A stretch of 64,000 nt of DNA from Caproicibacter sp. (GCA_036844765.1 DAIUFE010000001.1:45921-109920), one strand, 5' to 3'. Positions 44,705 through 56,340 are shown, counted from the first letter of the stretch. The notes: generated by a model from the letters alone, not told the origin. Program-made: numbers and translations.

Positions 44705-45196
44705 TCACGGCGCCTTCCGGCCGCGGCGTTCCATTCCGATCAAGGCCCGTTTGACGGACGGCCCTCCGAAGCTGTATTGCCCGATCGAGCCGTCCTTACG
44801 GATCACCCGGTGGCACGGGATCAGGAACGGCAGCGGATTCTTCGCGACGGCCGTTCCGACCGCGCGGACGCTGCGGCATCCGACGGCTTGTGCCAGCTCG
44901 CTGTAAGAAACGGTGGCGCCGTACGGAACTTTCCGCAGTGCGCGCCAGACGGATACGCAGAGAGGATTTCCGTCCAGCCGGACCGGGATCTCAAACTCCG
45001 TCCGGCGGCCTCGCAGATATTCCCGGATCTGCCGGACCGTATCCCGGCAGACCGGGCAGTCGGATTCCGGTCCGTCGCTCCGGTCCGCCGCAGCCTTTTC
45101 GGAGAGCAGCCGGAGCGACACGACCTCCCGGCCGGTGCAGGTTAGTTCCAGCGTGCCGATATCGGTGCGGAAACGGATGCTGTGAAACTGTTTCAT
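44705..45196 (-). CDS. ogt: methylated-DNA--protein-cysteine methyltransferase
   Basis: 163-aa ORF with the active site IPCHRVI and the helix-turn-wing block VPYGATVSYSELA. Confidence 0.92.
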   Translation of the reverse strand: MKQFHSIRFRTDIGTLELTCTGREVVSLRLLSEKAAADRSDGPESDCPVCRDTVRQIREYLRGRRTEFEIPVRLDGNPLCVSVWRALRKVPYGATVSYSELAQAVGCRSVRAVGTAVAKNPLPFLIPCHRVIRKDGSIGQYSFGGPSVKRALIGMERRGRKAP

Positions 45197-45264
45197 GAGT
45201 TCTCTTCCCTTCTGTTTTACATACGACTGTGAGAAACAAAAAGCACTCAGAAAGGGCGGTCGAA

Positions 45265-46308
45265 ATGAAACCCGAGCTTTTGGCGGAAGCGCCCCCGGTC
45301 CTGCGGGAATTTCTCGGATATATCGGCACCATCAAAGGAAAATCCCCGAAGACCGTGGAGGAATACTACCTCGATCTGCGCACGTTTTTCCGCTATATCA
45401 AAAAAAGCCGCGGCCTCGTCCCTCCGGAAACGGACTTTGAAGCCGTCGGCATCGCAGACATCGACCTCGACCTGATCAAGACCATCGACCTGACCCAGGT
45501 GTTCGAGTATATGAATTTTTTAAGCACGGAGCGGAAAAACGGCGCGGATACCCGCTCCCGGAAAGTCGCGAGCCTGCGCAGCTTTTTCCGGTACCTGACC
45601 GCCAAGACGGGAAAGCTGAAAACCAACCCGGTGGAGGAACTGGAAACGCCCAAGCTGAAAAAATCGCTGCCCAAATTCCTGACGCTGGAGCAGAGCATCG
45701 AGCTGCTCTCCGCCGCCGAGGGCGCGCGGGACTACTGCATCCTCGTCCTTTTTTTGAACTGCGGCATGCGGCTTTCCGAGCTGGTCGGGCTGAACCTCAG
45801 CGATATCCGCCTGCGCGAAGGCACCATGAAAATCACCGGCAAGGGCAACAAGGAGCGGATCGTCTATCTGAACGACGCCTGCCTGGCCGCGCTCCGCAGC
45901 TATCTTGCCGTGCGGCCGAAGGACGGCCTGCTCGACCGGAACGCCCTGTTCATCAGCAAGCAGAGGAAACGGATCAGCCCGAAAACGGTGCAGTATCTGG
46001 TCAAGAAATACCTGGGCCGCATCGGCCTGGGCGGGCGCGGATATTCGGTCCACAAGCTGAGGCACACGGCCGCCACCCTGATGTACCAGCAGGGGCACGT
46101 GGATATCCGGGTTCTCAAAGACATCCTCGGGCACCAAAACCTCGGCACCACCGAAATCTACACCCACGTTTCCAGCGAGCAGATGGCGCGCGCGGCCCAG
46201 GCGAATCCGCTGGCCAAAATCCGCCGCCGGAAAGCGGCGGGCCCCGCCTCGGACCCCGCCGGGCGGGACGACAAAGACAAGAATACCGAAAAAGAGGGGA
46301 AAAAGTGA
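45265..46308 (+). CDS. tyrosine-type site-specific recombinase (XerC/XerD-family) with a Lys/Asp-rich C-terminal tail
   Basis: From ORF 45229..46308, with the start moved to MKPELLAEAP. It has an N-terminal SAM-like domain and the catalytic blocks GMRLSELVGL, HKLRHTAAT, LGHQNLGTTEIYTHV. Confidence 0.88.
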   Translation: MKPELLAEAPPVLREFLGYIGTIKGKSPKTVEEYYLDLRTFFRYIKKSRGLVPPETDFEAVGIADIDLDLIKTIDLTQVFEYMNFLSTERKNGADTRSRKVASLRSFFRYLTAKTGKLKTNPVEELETPKLKKSLPKFLTLEQSIELLSAAEGARDYCILVLFLNCGMRLSELVGLNLSDIRLREGTMKITGKGNKERIVYLNDACLAALRSYLAVRPKDGLLDRNALFISKQRKRISPKTVQYLVKKYLGRIGLGGRGYSVHKLRHTAATLMYQQGHVDIRVLKDILGHQNLGTTEIYTHVSSEQMARAAQANPLAKIRRRKAAGPASDPAGRDDKDKNTEKEGKK

Positions 46309-47174: not shown

Positions 47175-48068
47175 CTAACTCAATTTTGCACGGGGATGGC
47201 ACTGATTGTAGACTTCCTTGAAATGGTCGTTCAGCAGATGCGCGTAAACCTGGGTGGAGGAAATGTCGGCGTGCCCCAGCATCGCCTGAAGATCCTTGAG
47301 CGCCGCGCCGTTTTCCAGCAGATGAAGCGCAAACGAATGGCGCAGCGTGTGCGGCGTGATCTCCTTGACGATCTTCGCCCGGCCCGCGTAAAGCTTCACG
47401 ATCTTCCAGAACCCCTGCCGCGTGAGGCGGCAGCCGTTCCGGTTGACGAACAGGGCCTGTCCCCCCTCTGGGGAAACCATCTGCGAGCGGACGCGCAGCA
47501 TATAATCGGAGACCGCGGCGACGGCGGTCGGGTGGATCGGAACGACCCGGTGCGACCTTCCTCCGCAGCAGGAAAGCCGGCCCGAACGGATATCGACATC
47601 CTCGACGTTGAGCTCGACCAGCTCCGAGACGCGCAGGCCGGTGGCGTAGAGGAGCTCCAGCATCGCTTTGTCTCGGCAGCCCTTCAACTCCGAGGGATCC
47701 GGCTGCGCGAGCAGCAGCTCGATCTCTTTGCCGCTGAGGATCTGGGGGGCCTTTTTCGGCACTTTCTGGAGCTTGACCGACTTTGCAGGATTGATACCCG
47801 CCTGGCCGCCGGCCATCAGGAATCGGTAAAAGCAGCGGAGCGAAGCGACGTTCCGCACCAGCGTGGCGCCGGACCGGTTCAGGCTTTTCAGATAGTCGAT
47901 GTATTCGCCGATCTCTGCGGCAGAAACGCCGGCGGGGTCGCGCGCGCCGTTCCGGTCCGTGAACCGAAGGAAATTCCTCACGTCGCGGACATAGGAAGCC
48001 ACCGTGTTCCGGGAAGCCGCCTTCCGTTTCGTGAGATAGTCCTCAAATTCCGCACCGTAATCCCTCAT
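47175..48068 (-). CDS. xerD: site-specific tyrosine recombinase XerD
   Basis: In-frame tail of ORF 47175..48293 from MRDYGAEFEDYL (ATG 48068). Catalytic blocks GLRVSELVEL, HTLRHSFA, LGHADISSTQVYAH. The spoIIM-xerD synteny is typical of Firmicutes. Confidence 0.88.
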   Translation of the reverse strand: MRDYGAEFEDYLTKRKAASRNTVASYVRDVRNFLRFTDRNGARDPAGVSAAEIGEYIDYLKSLNRSGATLVRNVASLRCFYRFLMAGGQAGINPAKSVKLQKVPKKAPQILSGKEIELLLAQPDPSELKGCRDKAMLELLYATGLRVSELVELNVEDVDIRSGRLSCCGGRSHRVVPIHPTAVAAVSDYMLRVRSQMVSPEGGQALFVNRNGCRLTRQGFWKIVKLYAGRAKIVKEITPHTLRHSFALHLLENGAALKDLQAMLGHADISSTQVYAHLLNDHFKEVYNQCHPRAKLS

Positions 48069-48088
48069 TCGGATTTCCCCTTTGCTCG

Positions 48089-48745
48089 TTAAAAAGAAAA
48101 CAGGCCGCCGAAGCACACCGAGAACACCAGATCCAGCAGCGCCCCGGCGCAGGCGACCGCCAGCGCCGCCCCGAAGCGGAGAAAATAGCCGCGGATGCCG
48201 GAGGATTTTCCCTCCCCGCGGCTTTTCCCCGACGCGATCATGCGGGAAAACCGGATCCCCTCGAGAGACGCCATCAGGATGGAAAGGCAGCATACGAAAG
48301 CGCCGGGCAGGATCACGGCCAGGTTATATAAAATACCCTTTCCGCCGTAGACGGCGTACAGATACCCCGACGTGAGCCCCAGACCGAAGCCGCGGAAAAC
48401 CACCACGGCCGGGATGAAAAACGCTCCCCAGATCGAAAGGCCGCACAGAAAGCACGCGAGGATGAAGCAGAAGCTGGACGCGAAGGAGGCGGAAAACACC
48501 AGCAGGAACGGCTGGGTCGTCCGCGATTTGAAATTCCCGGCGAAAAGGAAGTCCAGTTGCTCGAGCGACCCATAGCCCGCGTTCCTGGCGTAGAGGGAAC
48601 CCAGCGCCACCCCGGCCAGCAGCACCAGCGAAAGCAGAACCATGGCGCGGTTCCCGCGGGCGGCCCGCAGCACGGCCCCGGCCCATCCGTTCCCCGCGGA
48701 GAGAGCATGCCGGCGCCTCGGGCGGCTCACAATCACGACTCCCAT
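48089..48745 (-). CDS. spoIIM: stage II sporulation protein M
   Basis: 218-aa multi-TM ORF adjacent to xerD. Its size, topology and synteny fit SpoIIM, and a sigmaE-like promoter lies upstream. Confidence 0.65.
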   Translation of the reverse strand: MGVVIVSRPRRRHALSAGNGWAGAVLRAARGNRAMVLLSLVLLAGVALGSLYARNAGYGSLEQLDFLFAGNFKSRTTQPFLLVFSASFASSFCFILACFLCGLSIWGAFFIPAVVVFRGFGLGLTSGYLYAVYGGKGILYNLAVILPGAFVCCLSILMASLEGIRFSRMIASGKSRGEGKSSGIRGYFLRFGAALAVACAGALLDLVFSVCFGGLFSF

Positions 48746-48786
48746 CCAACCCTTCCCCCCACGAACATCTCAAAACATCTCAACAA

Positions 48787-48813
48787 AATGTATGTGGGAC
48801 AAAGCGATTCTAT
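48787..48813 (-). promoter_or_regulatory. sigmaE-like sporulation promoter upstream of spoIIM
   Basis: The minus strand reads ATA, 16 nt, then CATACATT. This fits the B. subtilis sigmaE consensus (ATA-16/18-CATACA-T). It lies approx. 42 nt upstream of the spoIIM start. Confidence 0.3.
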
Positions 48814-48998
48814 TCCGTCGGGATCCTCCGCAGGAATGCTCCGGACCCGCCTTTGACGGGAGATAAATCTTATGGTAGTACATTTTCCCCGGTGAATCAA
48901 GCCTAAAAAGAACCGCGGCCTATTTTCATGAGAAAGAGAAAAAAATCAGGCGGCGGATTGTGTAAATCTACAGATTTTTCGTCAAACCGACAAAAGTC

Positions 48999-50405
48999 TC
49001 AGGCGTTTGTTTTTTCCGGATTTTGCTTTTCGCTCCGGGGCGACTCGCCGGCCAGAGCAGCCTGAATCATCACGGCGCACTCGACCCGCTTCTTTTCCAG
49101 GGCGCAGGAGATGCGGTGCGGCTTTTGAACGTCTCCCTCGTACTGCCAGTTGTTCGCGTTGCATCCGCCGCTGCAGTAGAACTTGGCCCAGCAGCCGACG
49201 CATTTCGGCTTGGTGTAGACGTTGATCGCGGCAAAGCGGTCCCTCATCCCCGTATCGAACGAGCCGTCCAGAAGATTGCCCATTTTCCACTGCTCGTTCC
49301 CGACGAACTGATGGCAGGGATAGAGGTCGCCCGAAGGGGTCACGGCGACATATTCGTTGCCGCAGCTGCAGCCGCGCAGCCGCTTGATGACGCAGGGACC
49401 CTGGTCCAGGTCGATCATGAAGTGAAAGAAGTCGAAGCCCTTTCCCGCTTTTTTCCGCTCGATGACCAGGTCCGAAAGCCGGTCGTATTCCTCGAAGATC
49501 CTCGGCAGGTCTGTCTCCTGGATCGCGTAGTCCAGCCGGGCGTCGGACACGACCGGCTCCACGGAGATCCGGTCGAAGCCGAGGTCCAGCATCTTGCGCA
49601 CGTCGTTCGTGAAATCGAGATTATAGCGGGAATAGGTGCCGCGTATGTAGTAGTCCTTCTCCTTCGGCCGGCGGGCCACCAGCTTCTGGAATCTCGGCAC
49701 GATGGAATCGTAGCTCCCGCTGCCGTCCACCCGGACGCGCAGGCGGTCGTTGACCTCTTTCCGCCCGTCCAGCGAGAGGATGCAGTTCGACATTTCCCGG
49801 TTGATGAAGTCGATGTTTTCGTCATTCAGCATCAGGCCGTTCGTCGTGACGGTGAAGCGGAAATTTTTGTTCCGTTTCTTTTCGAGGCTCCGCGCGTAGG
49901 CGACCGTGCGCCGGACCACGTCGAAATTCATCAGGGGTTCTCCGCCGAAAAAGTCCACCTCCAGATTGTGCCGGGGGCCCGAACGTTCCACGAGGAAGTC
50001 GATCGCGCGCCTGGCGACGTCGAACGGCATCAGCATGCGCGCGCCGCCGAAATCCCCCTGCGCCGCAAAGCAGTACCGGCACCGCAGATTGCAGTCGTGG
50101 GCGACGTTCAGACACATGGATTTGATCGGAGCGCCCTTCAGCAGAGCCGCGAAGCGCCCGTACCCGTCGGGCGAAAAAAGCTGGCCCCCGCGGTACAGCG
50201 CCCGGAGCTCCCCGTACGCCTCCCGCAGCGTGTCTTCGGGAAAGCGGCGCTTCAGGGCATCCATCATCCCGCGGGGAGGCTCGTCCGGCACCGAGTCCTC
50301 AAGGTAATCCAGCATGGCGAACGGGGCTTCGCCGAAAAGGTGGACGGCCCCGCTGTTGGTATCCAGAACGATACGGTAGCCGTTCTGCGTATATTTGTGA
50401 ATCAT
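48999..50405 (-). CDS. scfB: radical SAM/SPASM thioether-forming maturase of the SCIFF peptide
   Basis: 468-aa ORF with the N-terminus MIHKYTQNGYRIVLDTNSGAVH, a CNLRCRYC rSAM cluster motif, and C-terminal SPASM Cys clusters (GCSCGNEY...YPCHQF...CVGCWAKFYCSGGC). It sits directly downstream of the six-Cys peptide gene. Confidence 0.9.
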   Translation of the reverse strand: MIHKYTQNGYRIVLDTNSGAVHLFGEAPFAMLDYLEDSVPDEPPRGMMDALKRRFPEDTLREAYGELRALYRGGQLFSPDGYGRFAALLKGAPIKSMCLNVAHDCNLRCRYCFAAQGDFGGARMLMPFDVARRAIDFLVERSGPRHNLEVDFFGGEPLMNFDVVRRTVAYARSLEKKRNKNFRFTVTTNGLMLNDENIDFINREMSNCILSLDGRKEVNDRLRVRVDGSGSYDSIVPRFQKLVARRPKEKDYYIRGTYSRYNLDFTNDVRKMLDLGFDRISVEPVVSDARLDYAIQETDLPRIFEEYDRLSDLVIERKKAGKGFDFFHFMIDLDQGPCVIKRLRGCSCGNEYVAVTPSGDLYPCHQFVGNEQWKMGNLLDGSFDTGMRDRFAAINVYTKPKCVGCWAKFYCSGGCNANNWQYEGDVQKPHRISCALEKKRVECAVMIQAALAGESPRSEKQNPEKTNA

Positions 50406-50437
50406 GGGATTTCAAATTCTCCAGACAAATAAAGAGT

Positions 50438-50460
50438 AAGGGACAGAAAACCTGTCCCTT
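50438..50460 (-). terminator. intercistronic hairpin (putative partial terminator/attenuator) between scfA and scfB
   Basis: The minus-strand RNA reads AAGGGACAG-GUUUU-CUGUCCCUU, followed by ACUCUUUAUUUGU. Confidence 0.55.
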
Positions 50461-50480
50461 CCAAAAAAGAAAAACTCAGT

Positions 50481-50627
50481 TTACCGGTTGGTGTTTTCAC
50501 ACTTCTGGTTGGTGACCGTGCAGGAAGTCTTGCAGGCGGACTGGCAGGACGCCTGGCACTCGCCGCAGCCGCCTTTTTCCGCGCTTTCCTTCAGGGCGGC
50601 GCGATTCAGCGTTTTGATCTGCTTCAA
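50481..50627 (-). CDS. scfA: SCIFF (six-cysteines-in-forty-five) ribosomal peptide precursor, 48 aa
   Basis: Not in the ORF track (below its size cut-off). My own translation of the minus strand runs from TTG 50627 to TAA 50481, with GGAGG 8 nt upstream: MKQIKTLNRAALKESAEKGGCGECQASCQSACKTSCTVTNQKCENTNR. It has six Cys and the GGCGEC core. Confidence 0.88.
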   Translation of the reverse strand: MKQIKTLNRAALKESAEKGGCGECQASCQSACKTSCTVTNQKCENTNR

Positions 50628-50664
50628 TTTTTAAGCCTCCGTTTCCCATCAAGATGCAATCCAT

Positions 50665-50692
50665 ATTATAGCACGCGGGCGACGATAATCAA
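50665..50692 (-). promoter_or_regulatory. candidate promoter for scfA
   Basis: On the minus strand: TTGATT (50692-50687), a 16-nt spacer, then TATAAT (50670-50665), approx. 38 nt upstream of the scfA start. Confidence 0.35.
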
Positions 50693-50696
50693 AGCC

Positions 50697-51113
50697 TTAT
50701 TTTCGTCCGGATTTCCCGTTCACGGCGAGGAATCCGCCCACGCCGCCGGCCAGGGCCATGACCAGCAGACGGAGCTCCGATTCTCCGGTGACGATCCCCT
50801 GGCAGGCGATCAGCCCGGAGACCAGAAACAGCAGGAACAGCAGCAGGCCGGAGAAGACGCCGAAAATCAGCCCGCGCCGCCGCGAGATCCGCGCGGTGAC
50901 AAAGCCCGCGAAGCCGGCGCTCAGCACCGAGACGGCGAGGATGAACGGCGGCAGAAAACCGTGCGGAAGATTTTCGGACGACACGAACGCAAGGGCGCAC
51001 AGCGCCAGCAGAACGGCGCACAGCGCCGCCCCGCACACGGAGCCGACGACCACGGCCTTGACGGCGACCCACACGGGCCGGCGGCCGATCGCCGCGCCGG
51101 AACCACCTTTCAC
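50697..51113 (-). CDS. small 4-TM membrane protein (TIGR04086-like family, recalled from memory)
   Basis: 138-aa ORF with a GTG start and GAAGGAGG upstream. It is hydrophobic and Gly/Ala-rich. Its position between yajC and scfA fits the synteny as I recall it in Clostridia. Confidence 0.65.
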   Translation of the reverse strand: MKGGSGAAIGRRPVWVAVKAVVVGSVCGAALCAVLLALCALAFVSSENLPHGFLPPFILAVSVLSAGFAGFVTARISRRRGLIFGVFSGLLLFLLFLVSGLIACQGIVTGESELRLLVMALAGGVGGFLAVNGKSGRK

Positions 51114-51230
51114 GGAGAACCGCCTCCTTCAACTTCTCGCCATATAGATATTCGCAGGAGGCGGCGTATATTCATCTTTCTTTCGGACCGCGATCCCCCC
51201 CGCGGGGGATCCGGCAAAAGGGAAGCGCGG

Positions 51231-51622: not shown

Positions 51623-52753
51623 TTAGATTCTTTGCCCAATCCGCCCAATCGATTCGCTGAAAAACTCCGAAAACCGGCCTTCGTCCAGCGCGGAACGGAT
51701 GCGCTCGAGCAGGGTGTTGTAGTAATAGACGTTGTGCATCACGCACAGCCGCATGGCCAGCATCTCGCCGCTCTTGAAAAGGTGGTGGAGATACGCGCGG
51801 CTGAAATTGCGGCAGACGGGGCAGCCGCATTCCGGGTCGAGCGGCCGGTCGTCCAGCTCGTACTTCGCGTTGAACAGGTTGCGGCAGCCTTCCCCCGTGA
51901 ACGCATGGCCGTGGCGCGCATTGCGCGTGGGGAGCACGCAGTCGAACAGATCGACGCCGCGCCGGACGGCCTCCAGGATATTCGCGGGGGTCCCGACACC
52001 CATCAGGTAGCGGGGCTTGTCCTTCGGCATTTCCGGCTCCACCGTCTCGATGATATGGTACATGACCTCGGCGCTCTCCCCCACCGCAAGGCCGCCGATC
52101 GCGTAGCCGTCGAGGTCCAGCTCGCGGATGCGGCGCATGCAGTCGACGCGCAGGTCTTCGTAGGTGCTACCCTGGTTGATGCCGAACAGCATCTGCCGCG
52201 GGTTCAGCGTGCCCGGCAGGGCGTTGAGCCGGTCCAGCTCCGCCTTCGAGCGGTACAGCCAGCGCACGGTGCGCGCGCACGAAGCGCGGGCGTACTCGTA
52301 TTCCGCCGGATTTTTGACACACTCGTCGAACGCCATGGCGATGGTGGAGGCGAGGTTGGACTGGATCCGCATGCTCTCCTCCGGGCCCATGAAGATTTTG
52401 TGCCCGTCGATATGCGAGGCGAAGGTGACGCCTTCCTCCGCGATATCCCGCAGCTTCGCGAGGGAAAAGACCTGGAACCCCCCGCTGTCCGTCAGGACGG
52501 GGCCGTCCCACCGGGTGAAGCGGCGCAGCCCGCCGAGCTTCCGCACGACCTCGTCCCCGGGGCGCAGATGCAGGTGGTAAGTGTTGCAGAGCTGGACCTG
52601 GCATTTCAAATCTTTAAGGTCCAGCGCCGAGACCGCGCCCTTGATGGCCCCGCAGGTCGCCACGTTCATGAACGCGGGCGTCTGAACCGTTCCGTGCGGC
52701 GTCGCCAGCTCGCCGCGCCGGGCCGCGCCCTCCGTTTTCAAAAGCCGAAACAT
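51623..52753 (-). CDS. tgt: tRNA-guanosine(34) transglycosylase
   Basis: 376-aa ORF with TPAFMNVAT, LTDSGGFQVFSL and GLAVGE blocks and a zinc site (CGCPVC...H). Confidence 0.95.
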   Translation of the reverse strand: MFRLLKTEGAARRGELATPHGTVQTPAFMNVATCGAIKGAVSALDLKDLKCQVQLCNTYHLHLRPGDEVVRKLGGLRRFTRWDGPVLTDSGGFQVFSLAKLRDIAEEGVTFASHIDGHKIFMGPEESMRIQSNLASTIAMAFDECVKNPAEYEYARASCARTVRWLYRSKAELDRLNALPGTLNPRQMLFGINQGSTYEDLRVDCMRRIRELDLDGYAIGGLAVGESAEVMYHIIETVEPEMPKDKPRYLMGVGTPANILEAVRRGVDLFDCVLPTRNARHGHAFTGEGCRNLFNAKYELDDRPLDPECGCPVCRNFSRAYLHHLFKSGEMLAMRLCVMHNVYYYNTLLERIRSALDEGRFSEFFSESIGRIGQRI

Positions 52754-52843
52754 CGTTCTCCCCCGCGCCTTTCTTCAGAGAATCAGCATGAAGTTTTTGC
52801 TTCTCCCCGCCTTCAGCGGGGAGAAGCAATTTTCAAAGATCGG

Positions 52844-53869
52844 TCAGACGATCAGCATCGCGTCGCCGAAGCTGAAAAAGCGGTATTTCTCCCGGACCGC
52901 CACCCGGTAGGCGTTCATGATATGGTCGTACCCCGCCAGCGCGGAAACCAGCATGATCAGCGTGCTTTCCGGCAGATGGAAGTTGGTGATGAGGCCGTCC
53001 ATCGCCTTGAACTTGAAGCCGGGATAGATGAAGATATCCGTCCAGCCCGCACATTCCCGGACGCCGCCCTCCTGCGCCGCGACGGTCTCGAGCGTCCGGC
53101 AGCTCGTGGTGCCGACGCAGATCACCCGGCCTCCGTTTTCGCGCGTGCGGCGGATCAGGTCGGCCGCCTTCCTGGGCATATAATAATGCTCGGAGTGCAT
53201 CTTGTGGTCGGTGATCTTTTCCGCCGTGACCGGGCGGAACGTGCCGAGGCCGACGTGCAGCGTCACGAACGCCATGCCGACCCCTTTGCGGCGGATCTTT
53301 TCGAGCAGCTCCGGCGTGAAATGCAGGCCGGCCGTCGGCGCGGCCGCCGACCCGACCTCTTTGGAGTAGACGGTCTGGTACCGCTCGTTGTCCTTCAGCT
53401 CGGATTTGATATAGTGCGGCAGCGGCATCTGGCCGATCCGGTCGAGAATCTCATAGAAATTCCCGTCGCAGGAAAACTCCGCGATCCGGTTGCCGTCGTC
53501 CGTCACGTCGAGGATCTCGGCCCGCAGGAGCCCGTCCCCGAAGGTGAAGCGGGCGCCCGGCCTGGCCCGGCGGCCCGGCCCGGTCAGGACCTCCCACACA
53601 TCGCCGGACCGGTGCGTCAGCAGCAGGAATTCCACTTTGGCCCCCGTCCCCTCCTTGACGCCGTACAGCCGCGCCGGAAGCACGCGGGAATCGTTCAGCA
53701 CAAGGCAGTCCTCCGGGTTCAGGTACTCCGCGATGTCGTAAAAATGCCGGTGCTCGATTGCACCCGTCTTTTTATCGAGAACCATCAGCCGGGAGGAATC
53801 CCGCGGTTCCGCCGGCGTCTGGGCGATCAGTTCTTTCGGCAGATCGTAGGCAAAGTCGCTTGTCTTCAT
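52844..53869 (-). CDS. queA: S-adenosylmethionine:tRNA ribosyltransferase-isomerase
   Basis: In-frame tail of ORF 52844..53959 from [19 protein letters not shown] (ATG 53869). Blocks [23 protein letters not shown] and CVGTTS support the call. Confidence 0.94.
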
Positions 53870-53942
53870 GTCGTGCAGGTCAAGTCCCATGATTTGACGT
53901 CTCCATTCTCCGATTGATGCTAACCCGTTTATTATAAATAAA

Positions 53943-54340: not shown

Positions 54341-55420
54341 ATGAAGCAATATCGCGTCGGGATCATCGGCGCCACGGGCATGGTGGGCCAGCGGTTCGCC
54401 ACGCTGCTCGAAAAGCACCCGTGGTTCAAGGTGGCCGCCTTGGCGGCAAGCGCCCGCTCAGCCGGAAAAACCTATGAGGAAGCGGTCGCTGGGCGCTGGA
54501 AGATGCCGGTGCCGATCCCGGAAAACATGAAGGGCATGACCCTGCTGGACGCCGAAAACGACAGGGAAAAGATCGCCGGCAGCGTGGATTTCGTCTTCTG
54601 CGCGGTCAATCTGGAGAAGCAGAAAGCCAAAGAGCTGGAGGAAGCCTATGCCCGGAGCGAATGCCCGGTGATCTCGAACAACAGCGCCAACCGCGGCGTG
54701 CCGGACGTCCCGATGATCATCCCGGAGATCAACCCGGGTCACTCCGCCGTGATCGAGACCCAGCGCAGACGCCTGGGAACGAAGCGCGGCTTCGTCGCCG
54801 TCAAGTCCAACTGCTCGATCCAGAGCTACGTGCCCGCCGTGACCCCGCTGCTCGACCGGGGCGTGACGAAGGTTCTCGCCTGCACCTACCAGGCGATCTC
54901 CGGCGCCGGAAAAACTTTCAAATCCTGGCCCGAGATGCGGGACAACGTGATCCCGTTCATCAGCGGCGAAGAGGGCAAATCGGAAAACGAGCCGATGAAG
55001 GTCTGGGGGCACGTGGAAAACGGCGTGATCGTCAACGCGACACGGCCGGACATCACGACCCAGTGCCTGCGCGTACCCGTCTCGGACGGCCACATGGCGG
55101 CGGTCTTCGTCTCCTTCGAGAAAAAACTCCCGCTCGACGAGATCGTCGCCCGGTGGGAAAGCTTCCGCGGCGAGCCGCAGCGGCTGCGTCTGCCGAGCGC
55201 GCCCAAGCAATTTCTGCATTATTTCCGCGAGGAGGACCGCCCGCAGACCAGGCTGGACCGCGAGCTGGAAAACGGCATGGCCGTCTCGATCGGAAGGCTT
55301 CGGCCCGACAGCCAGTACGACGTCAAATTTGTCAGCCTGTCCCACAACACGCTGCGCGGGGCGGCGGGCGGCGGTGTGCTGATGGCGGAGCTCCTGTGCG
55401 CCCAGGGCTATCTCGATTGA
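54341..55420 (+). CDS. asd: aspartate-semialdehyde dehydrogenase
   Basis: 359-aa ORF with ACAGGAGG upstream. It has GATGMVGQRF (Rossmann) and the active-site block SNCSIQ. It is preceded by a lysine riboswitch. Confidence 0.92.
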   Translation: MKQYRVGIIGATGMVGQRFATLLEKHPWFKVAALAASARSAGKTYEEAVAGRWKMPVPIPENMKGMTLLDAENDREKIAGSVDFVFCAVNLEKQKAKELEEAYARSECPVISNNSANRGVPDVPMIIPEINPGHSAVIETQRRRLGTKRGFVAVKSNCSIQSYVPAVTPLLDRGVTKVLACTYQAISGAGKTFKSWPEMRDNVIPFISGEEGKSENEPMKVWGHVENGVIVNATRPDITTQCLRVPVSDGHMAAVFVSFEKKLPLDEIVARWESFRGEPQRLRLPSAPKQFLHYFREEDRPQTRLDRELENGMAVSIGRLRPDSQYDVKFVSLSHNTLRGAAGGGVLMAELLCAQGYLD

Positions 55421-55449
55421 TCCGCCCCGGAATTTTGGGAGGTTGCGAA

Positions 55450-56340
55450 ATGAAGAAAACGGTTTTCACCGGGTCCGCCGTGGCGCTGGTCACGCCGATG
55501 AAGGAAGACGGCTCCGTCCACTACGACATGCTGGAAAAGCTGCTCGATTTCCAGCTGCAGAACGGCACGGAGGCGGTCGTCGCCTGCGCGACGACGGGGG
55601 AATCCCCCGTCCTGAGTCCCGAGGAGCACGCCGGGATCGTGCGCTTCCTCGTCAAAAAAGTCGGAGGCCGGGTGCCCGTGATCGCCAGCTCCGGCAGCAA
55701 CGACACGAAAACCGCCGTCGAACTCTCCAAGGCGATGCAGGAAGCCGGCGCGGACGCGCTGCTGACCATCACCCCCTATTACAATAAAACCTCGCAGGAA
55801 GGCTTCGTCCGCCACTTCTTCTATATCGCGGACCGCGTGGACCTTCCCCTGATCCTCTACAATATCCCCTCGCGCACCGGCTGCAACATTCTGCCGGAAA
55901 CCTACCGGCGCCTGGCGGAGCACCCCAACATCGTCGGCGTGAAGGAGGCCAACGGCAACCTGGCCGCCAACGCGGAGACCGTCGCCCTCTGCGGCGACAG
56001 CCTGGCGCTCTATTCCGGCGAAGACAGCCTTACCCTGCCGATCCTGTCCCTCGGGGGCAAGGGGGTCGTCTCCACCAGCGCCAACGTGATCCCGAAGGAA
56101 ATGGACGAAATCTGCCGAAATTATTTTCAGGGAAATGAAGCGCGCAGCCGCGAGCTCTTTTTCCGGTACCTGGACGTGATGAACGCCCTGTTCATCGACG
56201 TGAACCCGATCCCGGTCAAGGCGGCGATGAAGATGATGGGATACGACTGCGGCGGGTGCCGCCTCCCCCTCGCGCCCCTGAGCGCGCGGAACGCGGAGCT
56301 TCTGCACGGCGTTCTGAAACGCCACGGCCTGGCCGGCTGA
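55450..56340 (+). CDS. dapA: 4-hydroxy-tetrahydrodipicolinate synthase
   Basis: In-frame tail of ORF 54661..56340 from ATG 55450 (MKKTVFTGSAVALVTPM). Blocks ATTGESP, YYNKTSQEG, LYNIPSRTG and GVKEANG support the call. Confidence 0.94.
   Translation: MKKTVFTGSAVALVTPMKEDGSVHYDMLEKLLDFQLQNGTEAVVACATTGESPVLSPEEHAGIVRFLVKKVGGRVPVIASSGSNDTKTAVELSKAMQEAGADALLTITPYYNKTSQEGFVRHFFYIADRVDLPLILYNIPSRTGCNILPETYRRLAEHPNIVGVKEANGNLAANAETVALCGDSLALYSGEDSLTLPILSLGGKGVVSTSANVIPKEMDEICRNYFQGNEARSRELFFRYLDVMNALFIDVNPIPVKAAMKMMGYDCGGCRLPLAPLSARNAELLHGVLKRHGLAG

Follow-up and report, generated by a model that had tools for sequence, protein, structure and literature searches.

Anatomy and conservation of an scfA-scfB (SCIFF ranthipeptide) locus in a Caproicibacter-like genome

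The window analysed here, a 64,000-nucleotide stretch of Caproicibacter sp. DNA (GCA_036844765.1, DAIUFE010000001.1:45921-109920), carries on its minus strand a 48-codon gene, scfA (50481..50627), encoding a SCIFF ranthipeptide precursor, and on the same strand, after a 75-nt spacer, scfB (48999..50405), encoding a 468-residue radical SAM/SPASM protein of the thioether-forming SCIFF maturase type. Together they almost certainly make up a standard scfA-scfB unit in a Caproicibacter/Caproicibacterium-like member of the Oscillospiraceae. The scfA frame opens with TTG (50627..50625) and closes with TAA (50483..50481). An in-frame TAA (50633..50631) stands two codons before this TTG, and the stretch up to the core has no further ATG, GTG or TTG, which leaves it as the sole possible start; a Shine-Dalgarno sequence, GGAGG (50636..50640, minus strand), precedes it by 8 nt. 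Translated with the initiator as Met, the gene gives MKQIKTLNRAALKESAEKGGCGECQASCQSACKTSCTVTNQKCENTNR, whose six cysteines fall at positions 21, 24, 28, 32, 36 and 43. The motif GGCGEC (residues 19-24) places a Gly-Gly junction ahead of the six-cysteine C-terminal part, dividing the precursor into a leader of about residues 1-20 and a core of residues 21-48. A preliminary description of the locus had reported this minus-strand frame with its TTG, TAA and GGAGG, and a 48-residue product with GGCGEC and six cysteines in its C-terminal half; our rereading of the sequence agrees, and the translation does so exactly.

That description had also assigned the peptide to the SCIFF class and its neighbour to the thioether-forming maturases, and had proposed a profile search by which to judge both; the search, run here, bears out the two assignments. 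ScfA scores 78.8 bits against the SCIFF equivalog TIGR03973 (cutoff 50; E = 2e-22; model positions 1-43 of 43) and 80.9 bits against Pfam PF13165 (gathering score 27; E = 6e-23; positions 1-44 of 44). The spacer between the genes is well inside the distance of about 500 bp within which a SCIFF precursor is, by the published criterion, encoded next to the ScfB radical SAM gene (PMC5300114). ScfB in turn matches the maturase equivalog TIGR03974 from end to end with 695.5 bits (cutoff 425). Against the 'not_ScfB' exception model, NF040492, it reaches 557.4 bits, below the cutoff of 855, and it stays under the cutoffs of all other radical SAM subfamily models, including those for PapB, QhpD, nif11, CcpM and anSME. 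The CNLRCRYC motif and SPASM cysteine clusters noticed earlier are present in the 468-residue protein, the former within HDCNLRCRYC. A putative ribosome-binding site, GGAG (50419..50422, minus strand), lies 13 nt before the scfB ATG, and most relatives have GGAG at the equivalent place.

When ScfB was searched against the PDB, the only strong match was CteB of C. thermocellum (5WGG/5WHY; E = 4e-169), which aligns with residues 1-449 at 53.6% identity. The cysteines that bind the radical SAM cluster and auxiliary clusters 1 and 2 in CteB have been listed (PMC10177961), and ScfB keeps 10 of the 10: C105/C109/C112 of the radical SAM cluster (CX3CX2C; CteB C104/108/111), C346/C364/C415 of auxiliary cluster 1 (CteB C344/362/413) and C402/C405/C411/C434 of auxiliary cluster 2 (CteB C400/403/409/432). 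Residues 1-95 align with the CteB N-terminal domain, from which they differ by a 4-residue insertion, and the C-terminal tail of ScfB is about 16 residues longer; no RRE model in Pfam matched ScfB. Judged by this alignment, CteB, whose structure is known, has in scfB a full-length ortholog that keeps ligand sets for all three predicted [4Fe-4S] clusters. The likeness extends to the precursor of that system (CteA, from C. (Acetivibrio) thermocellum; 'thermocellin'). The window's leader matches the 21-residue CteA fragment (1-21) that was co-crystallised with CteB in 5WGG, and ScfA shares the cysteine numbering of CteA throughout.

To place the locus among its relatives, we used a comparison set of 80 loci obtained by a ScfB scan with one genome kept per species. 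The set covers Oscillospiraceae and relatives, including Caproicibacter, Caproiciproducens, Heritagella, Faecalispora and C. leptum, and spans ScfB identities from 58% to 82%; among named genomes, those of Caproicibacter and Caproicibacterium come nearest, with ScfB at most 82% identical, so the window probably derives from an uncultured, chain-elongating species of Oscillospiraceae. Immediately ahead of scfB, 79 of the 80 loci have a SCIFF ORF, the ortholog of scfA. The start register is common to the relatives, with ATG in 60, TTG in 9 and GTG in 4, those with TTG being the ones most closely related to the window. Separately, a 55-kb fermentation-metagenome contig (ENA ERZ922846, run SRR1561995) matches the window at 99.9% identity along 6.1 kb.

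The genes around the pair occur in the order queA-tgt-yajC-membrane protein-scfA-scfB, followed downstream of scfB by a SpoIIM-family gene, an XerD-like recombinase gene and a DUF624 gene. Among evaluable loci, yajC is retained in 63 of 70 and tgt in 56 of 66, and a SpoIIM-family gene lies within 3 kb downstream of scfB in 51 of 61. A complete Caproicibacterium genome (L088) preserves the same order over 16 kb, asd-dapA-dapB included, and in Peptoniphilus, which belongs to a different order, the arrangement is ruvCAB-spoIID-queA-tgt-yajC-scfA-scfB-recJ-relA. The housekeeping context formed by queA-tgt-yajC-scfAB is thus real, ancient and typical of SCIFF, spanning clostridial orders. The gene order given in the preliminary description was correct, but the context that it found notable for a RiPP is the norm for SCIFF. 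The scf neighbourhood holds no gene for a protease, ABC transporter, immunity protein or two-component system.

The small membrane protein encoded just upstream of scfA had also been noticed, although its gene is not the longest frame at that place. The gene is a 138-codon frame with a GTG start (50697..51113, minus strand) whose product scores 58.8 bits against TIGR04086 (cutoff 30) and 55.7 bits against PF12670, the DUF3792 family (cutoff 31.3), and has about four hydrophobic segments by hydropathy; a 147-aa ORF in another frame (50689..51132, minus strand) has no family match and was rejected. Of 71 evaluable loci, 62 have a DUF3792 gene immediately ahead of scfA; Peptoniphilus and about 7 Oscillospiraceae loci lack one. 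Going by this distribution, DUF3792 often neighbours scfA on the upstream side and is at most a candidate part of the SCIFF system. The B. subtilis gene yrzE, which adjoins yajC, presumably belongs to the same family. Our literature search on DUF3792, PF12670 and yrzE found nothing relevant, and PHROGs returned no match, and hence no phage link, for either the DUF3792 protein or the ScfA peptide. In the spacer between yajC and DUF3792, GAATATCTA (51145..51153, minus strand) lies within GCGAATATCTATATGG and recurs in 21 of 59 related spacers. It may serve the DUF3792 gene as a promoter element, perhaps one read by a sporulation sigma factor.

The membrane protein gene that follows scfB (SpoIIM/DUF95 family; 48089..48745, minus strand) was considered as a SCIFF partner, DUF95 proteins being companions of circular bacteriocins in other systems, and was rejected. 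Its product scores 44 bits against the SpoIIM equivalog, under the cutoff of 100; in many relatives the gene lies about 1.1-1.4 kb from scfB; and it is absent in Peptoniphilus and travels with xerD. In the spacer ahead of it (48746..48998), relatives share GTTTACATAAT (12 of 30), and the window has ATTTACACAAT inside a promoter-like site (48985..48957).

The scfA gene has a predicted sigma-70-type promoter of its own (50665..50692, minus strand), which a promoter scan recovered with 10 of 12 matches and the TG of an extended -10. It begins 5 nt past the DUF3792 stop codon and consists of a -35 element TTGATT (50692..50687), a 16-nt spacer and the extended -10 TGcTATAAT (50673..50665). The last of these recurs in the family: 63 of 75 related loci have a TGnTAnAAT-like extended -10 within 130 nt upstream of scfA, the median distance to the start codon being 41 nt. 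Among relatives, the DUF3792-scfA spacer has GAAACGGAGG as its commonest 9-10-mer (24 of 62 distinct spacers), which speaks for the Shine-Dalgarno site. In Peptoniphilus (L085-L087, 6001..6014), where there is no DUF3792 gene, the start of scfA overlaps the last 14 nt of yajC, and the gene appears to be co-transcribed with yajC instead of having its own promoter.

Between scfA and scfB, a terminator scan combined with covariation revealed a conserved RNA stem-loop with a U-rich tail (50428..50460, minus strand). The stem-loop (50460..50438) reads AAGGGACAGG-TTT-TCTGTCCCTT and runs into the tail ACTCTTTATT (50437..50428), which has 7 T in 10; the element stands 20 nt past the scfA stop and 32 nt ahead of the scfB ATG, so that the order 3' of the stem-loop is T-rich tail, GGAG, ATG. 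Most relatives have (AAA)TTTTGT as the tail. The tract is short or interrupted, and in the window it is interrupted, so termination may be weak or partial. In 50 distinct aligned loci, 94.6% of cells are paired and 8 of 10 pairs have changed on both sides, counts that lean slightly towards structure because the hairpin scan itself set the alignment register; none of 500 shuffles comes up to these counts, and in slid registers only 36-57% of cells pair. Folded alone, the 80-nt spacer is no better than its shuffles (z = -0.42), so the support for the hairpin is comparative and not thermodynamic. In the window there is a single copy of the palindrome, against 0.01 expected; of 84 loci, 56 have it, each with one copy, and its place is always immediately ahead of scfB.

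This anatomy suggests that the hairpin probably works as a leaky intrinsic terminator or else stabilises the scfA transcript at its 3' end, and we read its role as keeping a high ratio of precursor to enzyme transcript. Transcription of scfA would start at its own extended -10, sigma-A-type promoter, most transcripts would end at the conserved hairpin and U-tract shortly past the scfA stop, and a fraction would read through into scfB, whose ribosome-binding site follows directly. Terminator and read-through together would hold the precursor mRNA much above that of the enzyme. A promoter scan found no separate promoter-like site between the hairpin and scfB. The layout has counterparts in other RiPP operons. 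In sboA-albA and nisA-nisB, a short precursor gene is driven by a promoter of its own, and a hairpin behind it lets only part of the transcripts through into the modification gene; the succession of precursor, hairpin and enzyme is the same in scfA-scfB. The scf hairpin differs in that its arms are conserved in sequence across the family, beyond what is usual for a generic terminator; this is the only by-product of our comparison that we regard as even mildly unusual.

Such conservation is also what gives weight to a different reading, in which scfB is controlled through the palindrome, either as the DNA operator of a dimeric regulator or as an RNA element for specific protein binding or processing. 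No 9-mer of any spacer is as widely shared as the arms AAGGGACAG and CTGTCCCTT (46-47 of 76; promoter or RBS words reach 24 of 62 at most), and the arms are conserved in sequence, not only in pairing, across a family with near-saturated synonymous sites. Moreover, the distance from the hairpin to the scfB start is nearly fixed (mostly 25-32 nt), whereas that to the scfA stop is not. We nevertheless consider this reading unlikely. The loop varies from 3 to 9 nt across loci, a range that a dimeric DNA-binding protein would not tolerate, and the G-U wobbles in the stem are nearly all sense-oriented (18 GU against 2 UG cells); together these argue for an RNA hairpin rather than a DNA operator, as do the compensatory changes already described. 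The T-rich tail that follows the stem in most loci points the same way. In Peptoniphilus, a hairpin of other stem sequence, followed by a T7 tract and a ribosome-binding site, occupies the same position. In Rfam, searched at the gathering threshold over the whole window and at a permissive E-value over 50350..50750, neither the hairpin nor the 5' UTR matched a family. Finally, of 80 loci sampled among the matches listed in a metagenome scan for AAGGGACAG-N3-9-CTGTCCCTT, only 3 were scf junctions; the rest were unrelated, mostly ordinary terminators, and no second gene family with the motif, and no regulon, appeared among those matches. As its metagenomic contexts are mostly unrelated, the palindrome is not a unique signature outside the clade.

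The chemistry of the enzyme can be sketched by homology to CteB and Tte1186. The N-terminal, RRE-like domain of ScfB would bind the leader through K-x-I-K-T-L-N ... L-K ... K-G-G, and SAM would be reductively cleaved to a 5'-deoxyadenosyl radical. This radical would take a hydrogen from a threonine side chain (C-gamma of Thr37 or Thr34), and the thiolate of Cys32, held at auxiliary cluster 1, would then form the S-C thioether. Cys32, Thr34 and Thr37, the cross-link residues reported for Tte1186a and CteA, are all present in ScfA. Tte1186a/Tte1186 of Caldanaerobacter subterraneus, the first SCIFF to be characterised in vitro, is of the same family, and the likeness, which we drew from the literature and family models only, predicts a single Cys32-Thr thioether and three [4Fe-4S] clusters. 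PapA/PapB (freyrasin) and QhpD share the radical SAM/SPASM fold class and the non-alpha thioether chemistry and are more distant: ScfB scores 256 bits against the PapB model (cutoff 340) and 219 bits against the QhpD model (cutoff 453), and ScfA, unlike PapA, has no CX3D repeats and would use threonine, not Asp or Glu, as acceptor.

Which threonine accepts the sulfur is disputed, Thr37 having been found in vitro and Thr34 on co-expression in E. coli, and reports also disagree on the number of SCIFF cysteines that are cross-linked. Codon 37 (50517..50519 in the window) specifies Thr in all 77 distinct SCIFF genes, whereas position 34 (codon 50526..50528) is Val in two species (L018, L051) and in Caproicibacterium P0063. 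The invariance of Thr37 and the replacement of Thr34 lend mild evolutionary support to Thr37 as the acceptor, or at least show that Thr34 is dispensable. The window's ScfA also has a threonine at position 39, where most relatives have Ala or Ser.

The peptide as a whole is under strong constraint, and purifying selection on its core is extreme. Across 77 distinct DNA versions of the gene, 20 of the 26 core codons (residues 19-44) specify a fixed amino acid, each by 2-5 synonymous codons; pN/pS is 0.014 in the core, at a pS of 0.69, and 0.12 in the leader. Median identity is higher for the ScfA peptide (86%) than for Tgt (78%) or ScfB (67%), and the 26-residue core hardly varies among more than 70 species or between orders. 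scfA is therefore a genuine, strongly selected gene that encodes a 48-residue precursor. Two frames that overlap it, one on the same strand (50497..50664, 55 aa) and one antisense (50488..50634, 48 aa), were set aside, since selection acts in the scfA frame.

What the mature peptide does was said in the preliminary description to be without known function or target, a statement that is now partly outdated. In review summaries, knock-outs in C. beijerinckii and C. ljungdahlii changed the expression of Agr and sporulation genes, and SCIFF is listed as a quorum-sensing peptide on the basis of knock-out transcriptomes from these two Clostridium species. Taken together with the invariant core, the reported quorum-sensing and sporulation phenotypes make a conserved physiological or signalling function in Clostridia the most likely role. 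The invariance itself speaks against an antibiotic or a species-specific signal and for a conserved cellular partner.

A more particular version of this would make SCIFF a housekeeping, cell-associated modified peptide tied to its membrane and secretion neighbourhood, not a secreted natural product, with its dosage relative to ScfB set by a sequence-specific AAGGGACAG/CTGTCCCTT RNA hairpin that goes beyond a generic terminator. Several observations point towards it: the presence of yajC and DUF3792 here and of secDF, recJ and relA in other orders, a core more conserved than Tgt, a promoter that looks constitutive, the lack of a linked exporter, protease or receptor gene and the sequence-conserved hairpin arms. 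We hold it as a speculative proposal that is rather improbable in this full form.

Far less probable again is that the mature peptide is an antimicrobial, bacteriocin-like product. Many thioether peptides made by radical SAM enzymes, the sactipeptides, are antibiotics, and surveys of the antiSMASH type count ranthipeptides among putative bacteriocins. SCIFF does not fit this pattern in several respects. First, the core is essentially invariant in all those species and orders. Second, there is at most one copy per genome, and the family is ubiquitous in Clostridia. Third, its neighbours are housekeeping genes, and no immunity, transporter or protease gene lies nearby. Reviews argue likewise, describing SCIFF as ubiquitous in Clostridia with no antimicrobial activity reported. 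The conserved physiological or signalling function thus stands as the preferred reading of the role.

The pair itself is already known and routinely annotated, and recognizing it here was a correct but ordinary call. SCIFF and ScfB have been described since 2011 (Haft & Basu 2011, as cited in reviews); SCIFF is the most frequently reported 'BGC' in Clostridia, almost all of which have the pair, and the antiSMASH ranthipeptide rule is TIGR03973. The preliminary description had rightly treated the family as an established one; it has dedicated TIGRFAM and Pfam models, a crystal structure and automatic naming at NCBI. Its picture of a hidden gene holds in so far as 48 residues fall under the 60-aa default of the ORF lister, but public callers already call and name the identical peptide: it is tagged PF13165 on public contigs, the 55-kb fermentation-metagenome contig among them, and the protein database holds 1,772 SCIFF clusters, many with the NCBI name 'six-cysteine ranthipeptide SCIFF'. 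The locus nonetheless illustrates that genes of fewer than 60 codons can be read correctly from raw sequence, and, through its DUF3792 neighbour, that the longest ORF is not always the gene. The comparative by-products, namely the invariance of the core, the behaviour of Thr37 and Thr34, the extended -10, the hairpin and the synteny, may help in working out what SCIFF does.

Long frames without a gene are common in this DNA. Shadow ORFs of 469 aa antisense to scfB (49023..50432, plus strand) and of 761 aa antisense to tgt and queA (51632..53917, plus strand) are typical of a genome of 62.5% G+C. The idea that scfA is likewise a chance opening, leaving the radical SAM gene an orphan or with some other substrate, can appeal to such spurious frames (the 469-aa ORF and the 147-aa ORF over the DUF3792 gene are examples) and to the strong partial score against the NCBIfam 'not_ScfB' orphan family, yet we regard it as refuted by the scores of the peptide above both curated cutoffs, its recurrence in the same register in 79 of 80 loci and the core pN/pS at so high a pS, and the maturase itself scores far under the 'not_ScfB' cutoff and far over its own.

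Elsewhere in the window, the sole Rfam family found is a lysine riboswitch (RF00168; 54038..54211, plus strand; 95 bits), which is divergent from queA and lies upstream of asd (54341..55420) and of a dapA-like DHDPS gene that forms the C-terminal part of an ORF at 54661..56340. The asd-dapA-dapB block adjoins queA in Caproicibacterium (L088) as well. Two tyrosine recombinase genes are present, an XerD-like one (47175..48293, minus strand) and a second (45229..46308, plus strand). As listed, the XerD-like ORF shares about 200 nt with the SpoIIM-family gene; translation probably begins downstream of the listed start, as a 297-aa product is called at two related loci (L081 and L088). An ogt-like methyltransferase gene occupies 44705..45196.
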